Positions 12,907-50,641 of a stretch of 64,000 nucleotides of DNA are shown piece after piece. A program made the translations under genes and the position numbers. Below the pieces are notes generated by a model. The model made no database searches and was not told the origin of the DNA. It was given only the letters and a program-made list of their open reading frames with translations. This stretch comes from an uncultured Cellvibrionaceae bacterium (GTDB taxonomy: Bacteria; Pseudomonadota; Gammaproteobacteria; Pseudomonadales; Cellvibrionaceae), in contig CAZCJR010000003.1 of NCBI GenBank assembly GCA_964499225.1, positions 42,340 to 106,339 on the forward strand, read 5' to 3'. Every line of letters starts with the position of its first letter. The first letter of the stretch is position 1.

Positions 12907-13687
12907 TTTAGTGATAGGAAATACATCACAATTATCATATTATTTTCCTGAAGATTATATAAAAATATCGTCAAGAAATATAGATTTCGAATATCATAAA
13001 ACACAAAAATATGATAGAATATTTTTGTGTTTTGCTGAACAAAGAACATTTATAGAAGATGATAAAAAATTATTTACTGATATAAATGTTGATTATACAA
13101 TAAAAGTTATAGATGAATTAAAAGATTGTTGTACTAAGATAGTTGTGTATTCAACTTGTGAATTGTGGAATAATTGTGATGGTCAAGTAAAAATCGAACA
13201 ATCATATAATTATAATTATTCACCATATATAGAATCAAAAGAGATGATGTCGGAATATATAATGAGTAATTATTCTTATGATGATGTGATAGTTTTATTT
13301 CCTTTTAATTTTAACTCACCACATAGAAAGCCAGGATTTTTATTTAGTAAAATATTCGATTCTATAATAAATAATAAAAAAATAGAAATAGGAGATACAT
13401 ATTTTTATAGAGATTTAGTACATCCAAAATATGTTGTTGAAAGATCAATATTAGAACAAGAACATGCCTTAGTTGGTTCTGGTAGATTAACATTTGTGAA
13501 TGATTTTATAAGAAAATTGTATTCTGGTATGGATATGAATTATGATGAATATGTAACTGAAAATTTCGATTGTAATCTTAAAGTTAAAAGAAAAACCTTT
13601 TGGGAAGAATCGAATATATGTAAGTATGAAAAAATAATTGATGATACGATAAATGAAATCAAAAAAATCAAAAATAAACTTAGTTAA
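12899..13687 (+). CDS. Atypical short SDR / NDP-sugar reductase-epimerase
   Basis: LVIGNTSQLS (degenerate Rossmann motif), YSTCELW, YIESK and FNFNSP. Confidence 0.6.
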   Translation: MNNLVIGNTSQLSYYFPEDYIKISSRNIDFEYHKTQKYDRIFLCFAEQRTFIEDDKKLFTDINVDYTIKVIDELKDCCTKIVVYSTCELWNNCDGQVKIEQSYNYNYSPYIESKEMMSEYIMSNYSYDDVIVLFPFNFNSPHRKPGFLFSKIFDSIINNKKIEIGDTYFYRDLVHPKYVVERSILEQEHALVGSGRLTFVNDFIRKLYSGMDMNYDEYVTENFDCNLKVKRKTFWEESNICKYEKIIDDTINEIKKIKNKLS

Positions 13688-14822
13688 AGATACTATTAAT
13701 AATGATGATATTGATAGTTTGATAGATTGGTTAAAGACCTATCCAAGACTAACTAAAGGAGAATTGACAATAGAATTCGAAAAAATATGGTCTGAATGGT
13801 TGGGTGTTAAGTATTCAGTTTTTATAAATTCTGGATCATCAGCTAATTTAGCTATGATATATTCCTTACTACAATCAAATAAATTAAAAAATAATAAAAT
13901 AATTGTACCAAGTGTTTCTTGGGTTACTACTGTATCTCCTACTATGCAATTTGGTATGCAACCAATATTATGTGAATGTGATGAAGATACTTTAGGTTTG
14001 GATATTAATCATTTTGAAAAACTTTGTAAAGAACATAATCCATCAGTAGTTATATTAGTTCATGTTTTAGGTTTTCCTAATAAAATGAAGGAAATAATGG
14101 ATATTTGTGATAGATACGGTGTTATTTTATTGGAAGATTCTTGTGAAACCGTAGGTTCATTGTATGATAATAAAAAAACTGGTACATTTGGTTTAATGAG
14201 TTCATTTTCATTTTATTTTGGACATCATTTATCAACGATAGAAGGTGGTATGATATGTACAGATGATAAAGAATTATATAATTTATTATTATCTATTAGA
14301 AGTCATGGCTGGAGTCGAGATTTAGATTTAGAAACTCAAAATAAGTTAAAAGAAGAATATGATATAGATGATTTTAAATCTTTATATACATTTTTTTATC
14401 CTGGATTCAATTTAAGGTCAACTGATTTACAAGCAAAAATAGGTATAGATCAAATGAAAAAAATCGATCAACATAATATAATTAGAAGTAATAATTTTAA
14501 AATATATCATGAGAATATTTTTAATGATTATTGGAAAATAAATCCAGTAGATGGTTTCATATCAAATTTTAATTATCCTATTATACATCCAAAAAAAGAT
14601 GAAATAGTTAAAAAATTAATGGAAAATAATATTGAATGTCGTCCATTAGTTTGTGGTTCAATTGGTAAACAACCATTTTGGAAAAAATTATATGGTGAAA
14701 CTAATTTTGAATTTGCTGATAAAGTAGATGAATTAGGTTTGTATGTACCTAATAATCATCAAATTACAGAAGAAGAATTATTTAGAATAATAGATACTAT
14801 AAATAGTGTCACAAAACAATGA
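13653..14822 (+). CDS. colD: PLP-dependent DegT-family enzyme, GDP-4-keto-6-deoxymannose 3-dehydratase (ColD)-like
   Basis: NSGSSAN and LLEDSCE; [14 protein letters not shown] has His at the usual Schiff-base Lys position; RSHGW; no Fe-S Cys insert of RfbH/E1; adjacent to gmd. Confidence 0.75.
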
Positions 14823-17119
14823 AAAAAATGAAAAAAGCGTTAATAACAGGAATAACAGGACAAGACGGCTCGTACTTGACAGAATTATTATTAAAAAAAG
14901 GATATGAAGTTCACGGTGTTGTGAGAAGAAGTAGTTCCATAAATACAACCAGAATAGATCATATGTATTCTAATTCAAAATTAACATTACATTATGGTGA
15001 TATGTCTGATTCATTGTCATTAGATGGTTTAATTAATTTAATCAAACCGGATGAAATATATAATCTTGCAGCTCAATCTCACGTTCATGTTTCTTTTCAA
15101 ATACCAGAATATACTGGTCAGGTTGATGCTTTGGGAACATTAAAATTGATAGAAGCTGTAAAAAAACATTGTCCTAATTGTAAAATTTATAATGCGACAA
15201 CATCAGAATTATATGGTAAAGTTCAGGAAATACCACAAACCGAAACTACACCATTTTATCCAAGATCGCCATATGGCGTTGCAAAACTATATTCATACTG
15301 GATATCTAAAAATTATAGAGAAAGTTATAATATGTTTATTTCTAATGGTATTTTATTTAATCATGAAACAAGTGCTGATTTTACTCCCATGATTTTTAAA
15401 ATTGATGATGAAATAGATATTAAGCCAATTTCTGAAATAGTTAAATATCATACTAATAAAGGAAAAACATCAATAGATGTAAATAAAAAAGAATATCAAG
15501 GAACAGAAGTTAGTGAAGATTTATATGTTTGGGATAAAAATGATTGGACAAAAGTAAAATTTGCATCTGGATATCCACATGATATAGAAAATGATAATAA
15601 AAATCCTAGATTTTTAATTAGTAAAAATGCTTCATATTTAGCTACATCATCTCATAAATGTATAATGGAAGATGAAAGTGAAAAAACATTTGGTGATATT
15701 GAAATAGGGGATAAAGTGAATTTAATTGAATATCCTATAATTTTAGAAAAAGAAATAGAATTATCAGAAAAAGAGTCAGAATTAATTGGTTTTATTGTAG
15801 GTGATGGTAATTATAATCAAAAAAGAAACAGTCTTAGATTAACAGGAAAAGAGACAAATTTTTTAGAAAAATATTCTAAAATATGGGAAGAACTTGGAGG
15901 TGATGTATATAAATATCAAAGTGTTTCAGGATTTAATGAAAATGAAAAAATATGGCAATATGATTTAAATTCAAATAAAGAATGGAATAAAAAATATTTG
16001 AATGATATATATGATGAATATAATAAAAAAAGAGTACCTAAATTTATATTAAATTCAAATAAAAAAATACAATTGCTTTTTCTTAAAGGTTATAATAATG
16101 CTGATGGTTTAAAATCTAATTCCTGTAAATATGAATTTAAGAATTTTAAAACAAATTCACACACATTATCTGCAGGTCTAATATATCTTTTAAAAAATAC
16201 AACAGGTCAAGACTATAATATTAATATTGAAAGAAAACATAATTTCGGTGAAGAAAGAATATATTATTCAATTAATATTTTAAGTGATTCTAATAAAGGA
16301 CAAAATCATAGAAATAATATAGATAAATATAATTTAGTGTTAAATTTAATAGAAGATGGATATTCACAAAGAAAAATACAAAGAGAAACAGGAATTAGTA
16401 GAACATTCATAAGAAAAATACAAAATGGTTATATACCGAATAATTCACATCATTTGGAAATAAATAAAAACACCATCAAAAAAATAATAGAGATGAAAGA
16501 TTATGATGGTTGGTTTTTTGATTTGGAAACTGAGAGTGGTACTTTTCATGCTGGTGTTGGTCAAGGACATATTCATAATAGTGAAAGAAGAGGTGAAACA
16601 TTTGTAACGAGAAAAATAACAATTGCTATATCTAAAATAGTTAAAGGAACACAAGAAATTTTGGAATTGGGTAATTTAGACTCTAAAAGAGATTGGGGTT
16701 ATGCTCCTGATTATGTTGAGGGTATGTGGAGGATTTTACAATCTGATAAACCAGATGATTTTGTATTAGCGACTAATGAAACACATTCTATTAGAGAATT
16801 TATAGAAGAAAGTGTTGAAGTATATAATGATTGGTTATATTATACCATTCGTGAACATAATTTATGTTTACCGGAATTTGATAATTTCCAATATATAGAT
16901 TTGGAATGGAGAGGTGAAGGAGTTAATGAAGTAGGTTTTTGTAAAAATAGAAATAAAGTAATAATTAAAATAAATCCTAAATATTATAGACCGGCTGAAG
17001 TAGATTTATTGTTAGGTGATCCAACAAAAGCAAAAGATATATTGGGTTGGGAACCAAAAACAAAATTTAAAGAATTAGTTGAAAAAATGATGATTCATGA
17101 TTTAAATTCTAAAAATTAG
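14819..17119 (+). CDS. gmd: GDP-mannose 4,6-dehydratase interrupted by an intein
   Basis: [31 protein letters not shown], and LFNHE|...|[32 protein letters not shown]. Confidence 0.97.
15368..16579 (+). mobile_element. 404-aa intein with LAGLIDADG homing endonuclease and extra HTH, in gmd
   Basis: Inserted between NHE and S of conserved NHES; block B ATSSH, block [10 protein letters not shown], block [11 protein letters not shown], block F WFFDLET, terminal HN/S; first residue is Thr. Confidence 0.93.
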
Positions 17120-17944: not shown

Positions 17945-18121
17945 ATGGATCAAGCTAAACATAATTATTTGAAGTCGATAGATATGGATTATCGACTTCT
18001 TGTTAGAAAAATAGAAGAATTAGAATCAAAAGATAAATTAGATTCTGGTGAAGAAGAACATTTAGATGTATTGATTCAGTTAAGAGATGAAAAATTAGAT
18101 AATATAGAATTAGGAAGATGA
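17945..18121 (+). CDS. 58-aa hypothetical protein with C-terminal LRDEKLDNI motif variant (not in ORF track)
   Basis: MDQAKHNYL...LRDEKLDNIELGR*; TGA overlaps the smpB ATG. Confidence 0.6.
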   Translation: MDQAKHNYLKSIDMDYRLLVRKIEELESKDKLDSGEEEHLDVLIQLRDEKLDNIELGR

Positions 18122-18585
18122 AAGATAAAGATAAAAATAAAATTATAAATATTAAAAATAAAAAAGCCTATTTCAAATATGAAATAATGGAGAATTATGT
18201 GTCTGGTGTTCAATTAGTTGGAACAGAGATTAAATCTATAAGAACTGGTGATGTTAGTTTTACAGATGCTTATTGTTATTTTAAAGATAATGAATTGTTT
18301 TTAAAAAGTTTTCATATTTCTGAGTATGAACAAGCTTCATCATATAATTCACATGAACCAAAAAGAGATAGGAAATTACTTCTTACTAAGAAAGAACTTA
18401 AGAAATTAAGTGATAAAGTAAAAGAAGGTGGTTTAACTATTGTTCCATTAAGATTGTTTATCAATGATAGAGGTTTAGCTAAATTTGATATTGGTTTAGC
18501 TAAAGGGAAAAAATTGTATGATAAACGGGAATCAATTAAAGAAAAAGATCTTAAACGATCAGAAGATAGAAAAATAAAATTATAA
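18118..18585 (+). CDS. smpB: SsrA (tmRNA)-binding protein
   Basis: NKKAYFKY, GVQLVGTEIKSIR, RDRKLLL, GLTIVPLRLF and GKKLYDKRESIK. Confidence 0.97.
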   Translation: MKDKDKNKIINIKNKKAYFKYEIMENYVSGVQLVGTEIKSIRTGDVSFTDAYCYFKDNELFLKSFHISEYEQASSYNSHEPKRDRKLLLTKKELKKLSDKVKEGGLTIVPLRLFINDRGLAKFDIGLAKGKKLYDKRESIKEKDLKRSEDRKIKL

Positions 18586-26992: not shown

Positions 26993-28228
26993 ATGACTAT
27001 TAAAGAACAATGTGAACTATTTTTAAGATATAAATTTGAATATTATATCTTAAATAAGCCTACTATTAGTGATTCTATTTTTGATAAATTTGAATCAGCA
27101 TTAAGATCTACAGGTGATTCGTTAGCCTTGGAAGTTGTTGATTTAACGGATTTTCCAACTTTTGAAGTTATTAAAAAATTAGGTTTAGATATAGATAAAA
27201 TTGCACCAGAACAGAAAGTAAAAAATGATGAAAAATATCATAAACATTGGACAATGATGTTAAGTATTGCAAAATTGCAAGTTAATGATGAAGAAAATAT
27301 ACCATATACGGAATTAGATAGATTCTTATCTAAAAGAAAAACAGAAAGATACGAGTGTAGTTGTAAATATGATGGTAACTCTATGAGTTTGATGTATGAT
27401 AATGGTGTATTAATTCAAGCATTAACAAGAGGTCATGGTGATGAGGGTAAGGATAGAACAAAAAAAATGAAATTATTAGTTCCGAATAGAATTTCGATTA
27501 CTGGTAAAGTTGAAGTTCGTGGTGAAGTAGTGATATCAAAAAAAGTTTGGAAAGATAAATATTATGATGAAGAAAACTTAAGTAATGAGAGAAATTTTGT
27601 TGGAGGAGCGTTAAATAAAGAAGATTATAACGTTGAAGAAATAAATGATTTAGTTTTTGTTGCGTATTCTTTGGTGTCTGTTGAAGATAAAATAACATAT
27701 ATTGATAATACTATGAATGTGTTAGAAGAATTGGGTTTTAATAAAAAACATAAACCGTTTTTAAGTTATATTAAAGACTCTTCAGAATTTGAAAAAATGT
27801 ATTTTGAGTTTAAAGAATATAGAGAAAATTGTGAGTTTTTACTTGATGGTATTGTTATAAAATATCCTGAGAATGCAAGAACTAAAATGATTTCTAAAAC
27901 TAAATATCCTGCTTGGTCACTTGCTATTAAATTTGAAAGTCAATTTGCAGAAACTTTATTGCAAGAATTTGAGTGGTCTAATAGTAAAACTGGTGAATTT
28001 TGCCCTATTGCCCTATTGGAGCCTGTTGAATTAGGAGGCACAATGAATCGGAGAGCATCTTGTCACAACTTATCTTTTATTATTAAAAATGGTTGTTTTC
28101 CTGGTTGTATTGTTAAAATTCGTAAGGCAGGTGAGATCATAAATCAAGTAGTCGAAATAGTTAAGAAATCGCCAAATCATGATGAATATATGAAACAGTT
28201 TGAAGATTTCATTAAACAGAGTAAGTAA
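26993..28228 (+). CDS. ligA: NAD+-dependent DNA ligase, minimal (Ia + adenylation + OB domains only)
   Basis: PTISDSIFD, CKYDG (KxDG), ALTRG, EVRGEV, DGIVIK, AIKF, RASCHN and KAGEII; ends right after the OB fold. Confidence 0.9.
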   Translation: MTIKEQCELFLRYKFEYYILNKPTISDSIFDKFESALRSTGDSLALEVVDLTDFPTFEVIKKLGLDIDKIAPEQKVKNDEKYHKHWTMMLSIAKLQVNDEENIPYTELDRFLSKRKTERYECSCKYDGNSMSLMYDNGVLIQALTRGHGDEGKDRTKKMKLLVPNRISITGKVEVRGEVVISKKVWKDKYYDEENLSNERNFVGGALNKEDYNVEEINDLVFVAYSLVSVEDKITYIDNTMNVLEELGFNKKHKPFLSYIKDSSEFEKMYFEFKEYRENCEFLLDGIVIKYPENARTKMISKTKYPAWSLAIKFESQFAETLLQEFEWSNSKTGEFCPIALLEPVELGGTMNRRASCHNLSFIIKNGCFPGCIVKIRKAGEIINQVVEIVKKSPNHDEYMKQFEDFIKQSK

Positions 28229-48616: not shown

Positions 48617-50641
48617 ATGAATATAAAAAAAGATGTTAGTAGTAAAATACTCGAAAAAGATATATTATTTAATGTAGTTAAGAAACAATTAAAAGAAGAA
48701 TATATTGGTTTAGATGATGTTATAGATGAAATATGTAATTTAGTAGAACCTTGGTATTTATTTCCTAATGCTCAATTAAGACCAACTATTATAAATCTTT
48801 GGGGATTAACTGGTGTAGGTAAAACGAGTCTTATTATAAGAATGTTTTCGTTATTGGGAATTAATAATTTATTAAAGTTTGATACTGGTGAGTGGGTTGA
48901 TAAAGATGATTTTCAATTAACTGAAAAAATATCTGGTCAATTGAATAAGCTTAAAAAAGATAATATGATACCTATATTTGTATTTGATGAATTTCAACTT
49001 GGTAGAACAAAAAATGAAATAGGTGTAGAAATAGATAGAACAAGTTTAAGAGTCGTTTGGGATTTATTAGATTCTGGTAAATTTAATATAATTGAAGAAA
49101 AATGGGAAACATCAAGTATAATGAAACTATATAAGAAATTACAATATCTCTTATATGATAAAAATGTTATTGTTAAATGTGGTCGAGTGACTAATAAAAA
49201 AGAAGATTGGGATTTAATATTTGTGGAAGAAGATAGTGATGAAATGGTATCAAATGATATTACAGAAATAATAAATAAATATTATTCTGAAGATGCTTTT
49301 ATACCGTCAGCTTATTTATATACTTTAAGAACTATGAATGATGATATTTTTTATTCTGAGGTTGAAGTGGCTAAATATTTATTGACTTTAAGTGGAGATG
49401 AAATATTGACCTTTATCGAAAAAAGTATAGTGAAATCTACTGTTCCAATAGAACATGATTTTTCAGATTCTATTATATTTATTATTGGTAATTTAGACAA
49501 AGCATATTACAATAGTGATGAAATGGATCCAGATGTTGATGCTGATTCATTATATGAACACACAAAAAAGATAACACTATCCGATATTAAAAAAACTTTG
49601 ACACATCTATATAGACCTGAACAAATTTCACGGTTGGGTAATAATCATGTTATTTATAAATCTTTCAATAAAAAAATGTATCAAGATATAATTAAAATGG
49701 AATTGAATAAAATTGTGGATAGAGTATCTATGAAATTTGATTTTAATATAAATTTTGATAGTTCTATAAATGATTTAATTTATACTGAGTCTGTTTTTCC
49801 AACACAAGGTGTAAGACCAATATTTTCTACAATTACATCATTAATAGAATCATATATTGGTAGAATCGTTGTAAATTCTTTAAAAAATAAATTGGATATT
49901 ATATCATTGAATTGGAGTTATTTAAATGAAGAATATATAATAAAGTTAAATACTACAACAGTTGATAAAATTTTAAAATATAAAGTTGTGTTGAAGATTG
50001 ATAATGTTAGAAAGTCTAAAACAGATGATATGCAAGCACTTGTAGGAATACATGAAGCTGGTCACGTTATAACATCTATTTATGCTTTAAATCTTTTACC
50101 AAGAAGTGTGTTGAGTAGAACCGCTAATGGTAATGGTGGTGTAACTTTTATTGATTTACCTGATTATGAAACAAAAGAATTATTAATCAATAGTATTATT
50201 ATGTTGATTGGTGGTTACACGGCAGAAAAAATGATATTTGGTGATAATAATTTAACAAGTGGATCATATTCTGATTTGGAACATACAACTAAAACAGCTT
50301 TAAAAATAGTTAAAGAATATGGTATGAATGGTATTCCATTGCAATTTTCTACACCAGATTTTAGAATAAGTGATAGTTCTATATGTCTTAATAATGATGA
50401 TTTAGATCTAAGTGCAATAGAATTGGTAAAAAAATGTCAAACGAAAACAGAACAAATATTGAATGATAATATGGTATTGTTGCTTCGAATGGGAGAATAT
50501 CTTACGAATAATTCAAAAATGAATTCAGATGAAATAAAAAAAATGGTTGAAAAATACGGTAGTAAAAAGCCAATATATAAAACCAAAGATAATTATTTCG
50601 ATTATAAAAAAGTATTAATGGATAAAATAAAAAAAATATGA
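48617..50641 (+). CDS. Soluble AAA+ ATPase fused to peptidase M41 (FtsH-type) domain
   Basis: GLTGVGKT (Walker A), FVFDEFQ (Walker B), ISRLG, QGVRP; HEAGH, GGYTAEKMIFG and SGSYSDL; no TM segments. Confidence 0.85.
   Translation: MNIKKDVSSKILEKDILFNVVKKQLKEEYIGLDDVIDEICNLVEPWYLFPNAQLRPTIINLWGLTGVGKTSLIIRMFSLLGINNLLKFDTGEWVDKDDFQLTEKISGQLNKLKKDNMIPIFVFDEFQLGRTKNEIGVEIDRTSLRVVWDLLDSGKFNIIEEKWETSSIMKLYKKLQYLLYDKNVIVKCGRVTNKKEDWDLIFVEEDSDEMVSNDITEIINKYYSEDAFIPSAYLYTLRTMNDDIFYSEVEVAKYLLTLSGDEILTFIEKSIVKSTVPIEHDFSDSIIFIIGNLDKAYYNSDEMDPDVDADSLYEHTKKITLSDIKKTLTHLYRPEQISRLGNNHVIYKSFNKKMYQDIIKMELNKIVDRVSMKFDFNINFDSSINDLIYTESVFPTQGVRPIFSTITSLIESYIGRIVVNSLKNKLDIISLNWSYLNEEYIIKLNTTTVDKILKYKVVLKIDNVRKSKTDDMQALVGIHEAGHVITSIYALNLLPRSVLSRTANGNGGVTFIDLPDYETKELLINSIIMLIGGYTAEKMIFGDNNLTSGSYSDLEHTTKTALKIVKEYGMNGIPLQFSTPDFRISDSSICLNNDDLDLSAIELVKKCQTKTEQILNDNMVLLLRMGEYLTNNSKMNSDEIKKMVEKYGSKKPIYKTKDNYFDYKKVLMDKIKKI

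Follow-up and report, generated by a model that had tools for sequence, protein, structure and literature searches.

The stretch of DNA analysed here, called the window below (64,000 nucleotides; bases 42340-106339 of contig CAZCJR010000003.1, hereafter C3, in the 5.0-Mb metagenome-assembled genome (MAG) GCA_964499225.1 of an uncultured Cellvibrionaceae bacterium), carries a gmd gene interrupted by an intein whose first residue is threonine. The gene product is GDP-mannose 4,6-dehydratase (Gmd), as seen from its match to the NCBIfam equivalog model TIGR01472 (9e-150), together with the Pfam GDP_Man_Dehyd domain. The matches to both models are split around a central region, which is recognized only by LAGLIDADG_3 and, weakly, by helix-turn-helix (HTH) families. 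In alignments with Protein Data Bank (PDB) sequences, residues 5-191 of human GMD pair with residues 6-184 of the window Gmd and residues 189-342 with 586-761. As these alignments flank a gap, about 404 residues have been inserted in the motif that is written LFNHES-PRRG in the human enzyme. The gene and its parts are as follows:

14819..17119, + strand: gmd precursor open reading frame (ORF), 766 amino acids (aa) plus stop, called from the TIGR01472 match and from the PDB GMD alignments to either side of the insert
14819..15367, + strand: N-extein, residues 1-183, ending in ...NGILFNHE, with LFNHE (near-)invariant in 137 homologues
15368..16579, + strand: intein of 404 aa, from Thr1 (ACA) to Asn404 (AAT), delimited by empty-site comparison and junction tabulation and backed by an AlphaFold2 (AF2) model and Foldseek
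16580..17119, + strand: C-extein, running to the stop codon, from the DNA reading and the PDB alignment

Boundaries of the intein

The DNA at the two junctions reads AAT CAT GAA / ACA AGT GCT GAT TTT ACT CCC ... CAT ATT CAT AAT / AGT GAA AGA AGA GGT, with Thr184 of the precursor (codon ACA) as the intein's first residue, Asn587 as its last and a serine (AGT) at the +1 position. These limits were examined by an empty-site test, in which the two exteins were joined, relatives too short to contain an insert were sought, and the junction motif was compared. The nearest intein-free Gmds are P0268, P0270 and P0272 (86%, 83% and 82% identity, respectively, over 98-99% of the joined exteins), and the joined exteins present the same site sequence as is found in intein-free Gmds up to 86% identical. 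This sequence, NHESERRG, is present in 89 of the 118 nearest intein-free relatives with a readable junction (from the best 120 examined). Since only the removal of the T...N segment recreates NHESERRG, the boundaries T184-N587 are right; a junction placed one residue later, with Ser185 first, would add a threonine that occurs in no relative. A first-pass annotation, made from the sequence alone, had proposed a 404-aa T...HN intein at these coordinates in gmd, with threonine as residue 1. The intein-free relatives and the PDB alignments of the flanks confirm the element, and the empty-site comparison fixes the ACA codon at its junction.

Two further observations concern the host protein. Among the same 118 intein-free Gmds, 17, including P0275, read NHEGERRG, with glycine in place of the +1 serine; splicing would be impossible there, and such alleles might resist productive invasion by the intein. 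When aligned with human GMD from the PDB, the C-extein also turns out to carry some 22 inserted residues (~668-690; window 16820-16910).

Anatomy, fold and class

The sequence elements of the intein that are used in the rest of the analysis are the following:

15368..15406, + strand: block A, with Thr1 as putative N-terminal nucleophile and a nearly invariant Pro7 (homologues read T/C/S-[LVIM]-x-x-x-[MT]-P)
15572..15580, + strand: Tyr69-Pro70-His71, an NX-like element that co-varies with a hydroxyl at position 1 in the homologue alignment
15644..15655, + strand: block B core T93-S-S-H96 (B:7 Thr, kept in 136/137 homologues; B:10 His, kept in 137/137)
15755..16297, + strand: LAGLIDADG homing-endonuclease domain, residues ~130-310 (Pfam LAGLIDADG_3; conserved acidic residues and glycines; Foldseek)
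15782-15808, + strand: LAGLIDADG motif 1, LIGFIVGDG, with Asp146
16076-16108, + strand: LAGLIDADG motif 2, containing LKGYNNADG, with Asp246
16307..16423, + strand: three-helix HTH accessory domain (ACD), residues ~314-352 (AF2 helices, Pfam HTH matches, ACD position)
16511..16549, + strand: block F, W-F-F-D385-L-E-T-E-S-G-T-F-H394 (F:4 Asp, F:13 His)
16559..16582, + strand: block G, G-Q-G-H-I-H403-N404, plus Ser+1 (AGT, 16580-16582), with HN/S in 101/101 Thr1 homologues

Conservation was scored on an alignment of 137 complete homologous Gmd inteins (101 with Thr1, 9 with Ser1 and 27 with Cys1). Across these, Pro7, Trp55-Asp56, Thr93, His96, Asp385, Thr388, Gly396, Gly398, Asn404 and Ser+1 are (near-)invariant, as are G141, D146, G147, G241, Y242, D246 and G247 of the LAGLIDADG domain. 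D385 is kept in 135 of the 137, and H394 is present in the window copy and in 78/101 Thr1 relatives. The +1 residue is serine at 158 of the 163 C-junctions that could be placed in protein homologues and in all 75 copies recovered from genomes. The two LAGLIDADG motifs are both in place and 27 of 29 members match Pfam LAGLIDADG_3, predicting an endonuclease of the two-motif, monomeric kind.

The intein, extended by six residues of flank at either end, was modeled with AF2 from an alignment of 29 sequences; the model has a mean pLDDT of 88.6 and a pTM of 0.86. Its best Foldseek matches are the TliVMA (7qsu/7qss, E 6e-18), PhoVMA, PI-TkoII (2cw7) and PI-SceI inteins, with free LAGLIDADG enzymes (I-DmoI, I-SceI), WhiA and the mini-inteins VidaL, NpuDnaB and gp41-1 further down. 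When compared with PDB sequences, the family profile finds PI-PkoII best (1.8e-9; a synonym of PI-TkoII), and also TliVMA and the Ser1 intein of Mja TFIIB. An exhaustive scan recovered distant relatives in hosts other than Gmd, several of them at the YGD/ motif of family-B DNA polymerases. All of these begin with serine and share the block A pattern S-[VI]-x-x-Y-[TS]-P, which places the Gmd inteins in the oxyester branch of class 1 that includes PI-TkoII.

The insert thus combines exact removal at its host site, a nucleophilic residue 1, the TxxH of block B, F:4 Asp with F:13 His, a terminal HN followed by Ser+1, and the HINT fold, all of which are class-1 features. As to residue 1, threonine fits the broad definition of the class (Ser1/Thr1/Cys1), not the list of residues seen in nature, which comprises Cys and Ser. 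The WCT triplet of class 3 is absent from the window intein, where B:12 is Cys98 and not Trp, F:4 is Asp385 and not Cys, and G:5 is Ile402 and not Thr. Nor does the intein resemble the KlbA-type class 2, as residue 1 is Thr (C/S/T in relatives) and not Ala, and +1 is Ser and not Cys. The first-pass annotation had called blocks B and F class-1-like and had noted the lack of a block-F Cys and a block-G Thr; both points are borne out, the former by the conservation of T93, H96 and D385. Judged by these features, the element is a mobile class-1 intein, in which a HINT domain with a nested LAGLIDADG endonuclease and an HTH module occupies the NHE/S(E/P)RRG motif of Gmd.

Several relatives depart from this layout. 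A subclade of Thr1 Gmd inteins of about 445 aa (P0062, P0069, P0040, P0048 and relatives; P0062 is the named Gmd of Pithovirus LCPAC304) has an extra segment of ~45 aa that separates the N-terminal HINT part from the first LAGLIDADG helix. This segment resembles a C2H2-type zinc finger (e.g. ECKYCNHIFSNKNKLNIHIGKC), one member matched Pfam zf-C2H2, and it may represent another DNA-binding accessory module that was gained independently. In P0165, P0174, P0183, P0187 and P0198, which are Gmd-like short-chain dehydrogenases/reductases (NH-TGPRRG), an apparently related intein lies one residue upstream and reads NH/S-V-S-R...H-N/T-G-P-R-R-G, i.e., Ser1 with Thr+1; this would be an adjacent site of insertion, in a paralogous enzyme. 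Finally, P0028, P0029, P0042, P0049, P0076 and P0099 (1000-1137 aa) show an extra match to Intein_splicing (PF14890) and have room for a second intein or a fusion.

Threonine at position 1 across the Gmd inteins

A length-restricted search for insert-bearing Gmd proteins gave 563 matches, and a full HMMER scan with the intein alone against 1.84 billion cluster representatives gave 362. Residue 1 was tabulated only where alignment of the exteins allowed the N-junction to be located, which left 166 proteins. The tabulation, which had been put forward in the first-pass annotation as a check on its Thr1 assignment, shows threonine to be the commonest state by far (Thr 115, Cys 31, Ser 14, and a few others with a shifted junction). 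In 75 intact copies from species-representative genomes the states are more even (Thr 32, Ser 31, Cys 12). Taken over the ~240 homologous inteins that share the Gmd junction, residue 1 is only ever C, S or T, and never Ala, Gly or Pro, as would be expected if it were a nucleophile rather than a structural residue.

The genomic copies with Thr1 come from Saprospiraceae and other Bacteroidota bins, Omnitrophota, Saccharibacteria and other members of the Candidate Phyla Radiation (CPR), Planctomycetota, and Woese- and Nanoarchaeota. Those with Ser1 are mostly from Eremiobacterota, where they lie on multi-Mb contigs, and those with Cys1 are from DPANN archaea, Chloroflexota and Gemmatimonadota. 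The Thr1 loci span 30-64% GC, and one is on an 811-kb Omnitrophota contig. Within the 32 Thr1 genome copies all four threonine codons are used (ACA 13, ACG 11, ACC 6, ACT 2), implying that the amino acid has been held through a long period of synonymous turnover. At position 2, 98/101 Thr1 homologues have Leu, Val, Ile or Met.

In a maximum-likelihood tree built with residue 1 masked, the Thr1 inteins fall in a single clade (106 rows, of which 101 are T, 3 S and 2 C; SH-aLRT 93-97), which is nested among Cys1 and Ser1 lineages and has a Ser1 intein as its immediate outgroup; the switches to Ser or Cys inside it are sporadic. Read from this topology, threonine at position 1 arose secondarily and became fixed in a single large clade, whose ancestors were Gmd inteins with Cys1 or Ser1; these are in turn related, by their sequence affinities, to the Ser1 inteins of family-B DNA polymerases. 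The more than 130 Thr1 homologues, the restriction to C/S/T, the use of four codons and the reading frames, which are intact in all copies, strongly suggest that Thr1 is a maintained and functional nucleophile. Intein-free alleles (<=86% identical) coexist with occupied ones, which we count as evidence of the mobility of the element.

Residues that accompany the hydroxyl nucleophile

A set of positions outside residue 1 differs between the inteins with a hydroxyl nucleophile and those with Cys1. Tyr69 is found in 101/101 Thr1 and 7/9 Ser1 inteins vs 0/27 with Cys1, and His71, which stands 25 residues before H96, in 99/101, 4/9 and 5/27, respectively. Phe383 at F:2 is likewise present in 101/101 Thr1, 5/9 Ser1 and 2/27 Cys1 inteins (Val in 21 of the latter), and the penultimate His403 in 101/101, 8/9 and 13/27. 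A conserved histidine upstream of block B, termed NX, preceded by Arg/Lys and close enough to the hydroxyl of residue 1 for a hydrogen bond, has been described only in Ser1 inteins and was proposed to activate the hydroxyl (Pasch et al. 2023). In the HMM alignment the R-H of the Mja TFIIB Ser1 intein falls three residues off His71.

The HTH accessory domain

The first-pass annotation had pointed to an extra HTH in the intein, with a string that corresponds to intein residues 332-351, after the LAGLIDADG domain and before block F. The module is real and lies where it was placed. The AF2 model has helices at model positions 320-335, 340-347 and 351-358, the window copy matches HTH_7 at 6e-4, and HTH_7, HTH_3, HTH_19 and HTH_28 are matched repeatedly across 29 homologues (best 3.3e-5). 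It is on these Pfam matches and the three predicted helices that we base the HTH assignment; a comparison of the HTH sequence with the PDB gave sub-threshold matches only, to Xre-type regulators and the HTH of the Tn552 invertase. The module is not an oddity, as it belongs to a known type of ACD. Such domains follow the endonuclease and precede the C-terminal HINT segment; they are HTH-like in TliVMA and PI-TkoII, and the TliVMA domain alters the choice of DNA sites that are cut (Beyer & Iwai 2022, PMC8966425). Both of these inteins are among the four best structural matches of our model. Position, the three helices and the Pfam matches identify the module as an ACD, with DNA binding predicted, and by analogy it most likely helps the endonuclease recognize its gmd target.

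The HTH is present in 100/101 Thr1 and 8/36 Cys1/Ser1 Gmd inteins, and is absent from the forms of ~345 aa. A strict tie between the HTH and Thr1 was considered and is ruled out by the homologous HTH in a Cys1/Ser1 subclade (P0133, P0135-P0137) and in the Ser1 intein P0122.

A proposal for splicing and its alternatives

We propose, with a probability of about 80%, that Thr1 initiates the standard four-step oxyester splicing pathway, and the window intein is very probably a working natural Thr1 variant, both judgments being drawn from sequence conservation. After translation, the hydroxyl of Thr1 would attack the carbonyl of Glu-1 in an N-O acyl shift, aided by Thr93 and His96 of block B and the F:4 Asp385, and probably also by the clade-specific Tyr69-x-His71. 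Ser+1 would then take over the N-extein to give a branched ester, after which Asn404, helped by His403 and His394, would cyclize and release the intein. A final O-N shift would leave the native ...LFNHE-SERRG... and thereby an active Gmd for the 6-deoxyhexose glycan island of a phage, as which the contig is interpreted below. The LAGLIDADG domain together with the HTH module would cut intein-free gmd alleles and copy the element into them by homing, which would explain its spread over phages, giant viruses, bacteria and archaea. Precedent for the chemistry comes from the S1T mutant of the Tli pol-2 intein, which is reported to splice (Tori et al. 2010).

Several points weigh against this proposal. 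The case for splicing is drawn from conservation, and the selection estimates that enter it are imprecise: Nei-Gojobori (NG86) omega is ~0.2-0.3 for exteins, HINT, homing endonuclease and HTH alike, from 14 usable unsaturated pairs, and is to be taken as rough because most pairs are saturated in dS. The supposed counterpart of the NX motif is imperfect, in that His71 is preceded by Pro in 83/101 and by Lys in 14/101 Thr1 inteins, whereas the published motif has Arg/Lys. Further, the window copy is alone among the 101 in having Ser at position 2. This last peculiarity, along with the pairing by HMMER of the query HET with HES of human GMD, could be taken to mean that the junction is shifted, with Ser185 (residue 2) as the true nucleophile and a spliced Gmd that reads NHET-SERRG with an extra residue. 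We regard this as highly improbable, as the Leu, Val, Ile or Met residues that nearly all Thr1 homologues have at position 2 show that it is not the nucleophile of the family, the first residues of the Cys1/Ser1 relatives align to the Thr and not to residue 2, and intein-free Gmds have NHESERRG with no added residue.

An intein that is dead or splices poorly is the alternative in which the protein stays unprocessed or is only cleaved, leaving gmd non-functional or dependent on slow conditional splicing, a form of "gate". Threonine is a poorer nucleophile than cysteine and is unseen at position 1 in curated inteins, and conditional splicing is documented for other inteins. On the other hand, such gmd genes would be expected to decay if the intein lodged in their conserved active-site loop were dead, whereas more than 130 intact copies exist, the exteins and all parts of the intein are under purifying selection, and the full catalytic set is retained. 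Moreover, gmd in the window belongs to a set of glycan-synthesis genes that run intact over 17 kb on one strand, and it directly follows the ORF at 13653-14822; on balance this alternative appears unlikely. The related claim of the first-pass annotation, that the intein gates the glycan pathway, is unsupported: nothing points to regulation, and splicing is a mere precondition for active Gmd, as it is in any intein host. It is likewise quite unlikely, in our assessment, that Ser+1 attacks the Glu-1 bond directly by a class-2-like route, with Thr1 kept for structure only. Class 2 (KlbA) does show, according to a review, that splicing can do without an N-terminal nucleophile and still employ the same residues at B:7, B:10 and F:4, but the described route relies on Cys+1 and the Gmd inteins always have Ser+1. 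The restriction of residue 1 to Thr, Ser and Cys in ~240 homologues also speaks against it, as does the co-variation of Tyr69 and His71 with the hydroxyl at position 1, which points to a chemically engaged side chain.

The phage contig and the neighborhood of gmd

The MAG is mixed, with ~4.6 Mb at ~48% GC vs eight contigs totalling 401 kb, including C3, C5 and C10, at ~25% GC. C3 itself has 24% GC and bears a Terminase_6N gene (C3:7935-8432); the low GC and the terminase suggest a huge tailed phage mis-binned into a bacterial MAG, and the low-GC contigs together are probably one such phage genome that was binned with the bacterium. The Gmds of Pithovirus LCPAC304 and of viral metagenomes prompted us to consider a giant virus as the host of the element, an idea that we rejected given the Terminase_6N on the same contig and the lack of a match to a capsid of nucleocytoplasmic large DNA viruses; the control for the capsid search was also silent, making that negative weak evidence. 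No match to the intein came up when 50,697 GenBank phage records were searched by tblastn.

The last gene of the 17-kb glycan-synthesis run is gmd, and an active Gmd is presumably wanted there. Just downstream of the island is a gene for a full-length SmpB, the partner of tmRNA (18118-18585, + strand; Pfam 4.5e-55); neither a tmRNA nor a tRNA was found in the window. Farther along are genes for a 411-aa NAD-dependent DNA ligase with adenylation and OB domains only (26993-28228, + strand) and for a soluble FtsH-M41-like protease with a ClpB-D2-like segment (48617-50641, + strand). A short NAD-dependent ligase and an FtsH-like protease are typical accessory genes of huge phages.

Implications and comparison with known inteins

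In the literature, Thr1 is held to be chemically possible but not observed in nature, and reviews from 2010 to 2023 give position 1 as Cys/Ser: a 2014 JBC review admits Cys1 or Ser1 only as the nucleophiles of step 1, and one of 2023 describes residue 1 as "either a cysteine or serine". Our searches of the open-access literature turned up neither a Gmd intein nor a Thr1 intein from nature. Hosts that act on sugar nucleotides are not unprecedented, as 10 inteins are known in archaeal UDP-glucose/GDP-mannose dehydrogenase (Novikova et al.). Against this background we think it likely, going by the sequences, that the Gmd inteins include the first recognized natural Thr1 clade, in which the nucleophile would have passed from Cys through Ser to Thr, with occasional reversals, together with a re-tuning of the active site (Tyr69-x-His71, F:2 Phe, and a penultimate His that is obligatory), with Thr1 being selected and fully competent.

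If true, this would settle the old question of why Thr is "never" at position 1, and would provide a new cysteine-free scaffold for protein engineering along with a homing endonuclease directed at a metabolic gene in phages, giant viruses, bacteria and archaea alike. The Thr1 clade and its Cys1/Ser1 sisters at a single insertion site amount to a natural experiment on how the HINT active site adapts to its nucleophile, which singles out Tyr69, His71, Phe383 and His403 as residues of interest. They may also be a source of new cysteine-less inteins, a type in demand where splicing has to proceed under oxidizing conditions. At a broader level, Gmd, a non-replicative metabolic enzyme, emerges as a major undescribed niche for inteins in huge phages, giant viruses, CPR bacteria, Omnitrophota and DPANN archaea. 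To this picture the window contributes a phage host, an exact empty-site proof and the analysis of the accessory domain.

Among characterized inteins, PI-TkoII (Tko Pol-2) and the other Ser1 inteins of family-B polymerases are alike in their HINT, LAGLIDADG and accessory-domain architecture. They use oxyester chemistry with hydroxyls at positions 1 and +1 (Ser1/Ser+1 or Thr+1), and the Gmd intein, from its sequence, would likewise place hydroxyls at both positions; the differences lie in the Ser1 of the polymerase inteins as against a natural Thr1, and in a polymerase as opposed to a sugar-nucleotide dehydratase as host. TliVMA, the top structural match, shares an HTH-like accessory domain with the Gmd intein at only ~14% sequence identity, yet it has Cys1 and is inserted in an ATPase P-loop, and DNA binding by the HTH of the Gmd intein is a prediction. 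Class 2 (KlbA) and class 3 (WCT) also have a non-canonical residue 1, but their defining features are absent from the Gmd intein, where G:5 is Ile/Val, the +1 position holds Ser, and residue 1 could act as a nucleophile itself. The Cys1/Ser1 Gmd inteins at NHE/SPRRG in Eremiobacterota, Chloroflexota and DPANN archaea share the site, the blocks and the LAGLIDADG motifs, and form the stem from which the Thr1 clade arises. Unlike the Thr1 forms, they are mostly ~345 aa long without the HTH, and in those with Cys1 there is no Tyr69, in most cases no His71, and often no penultimate His.

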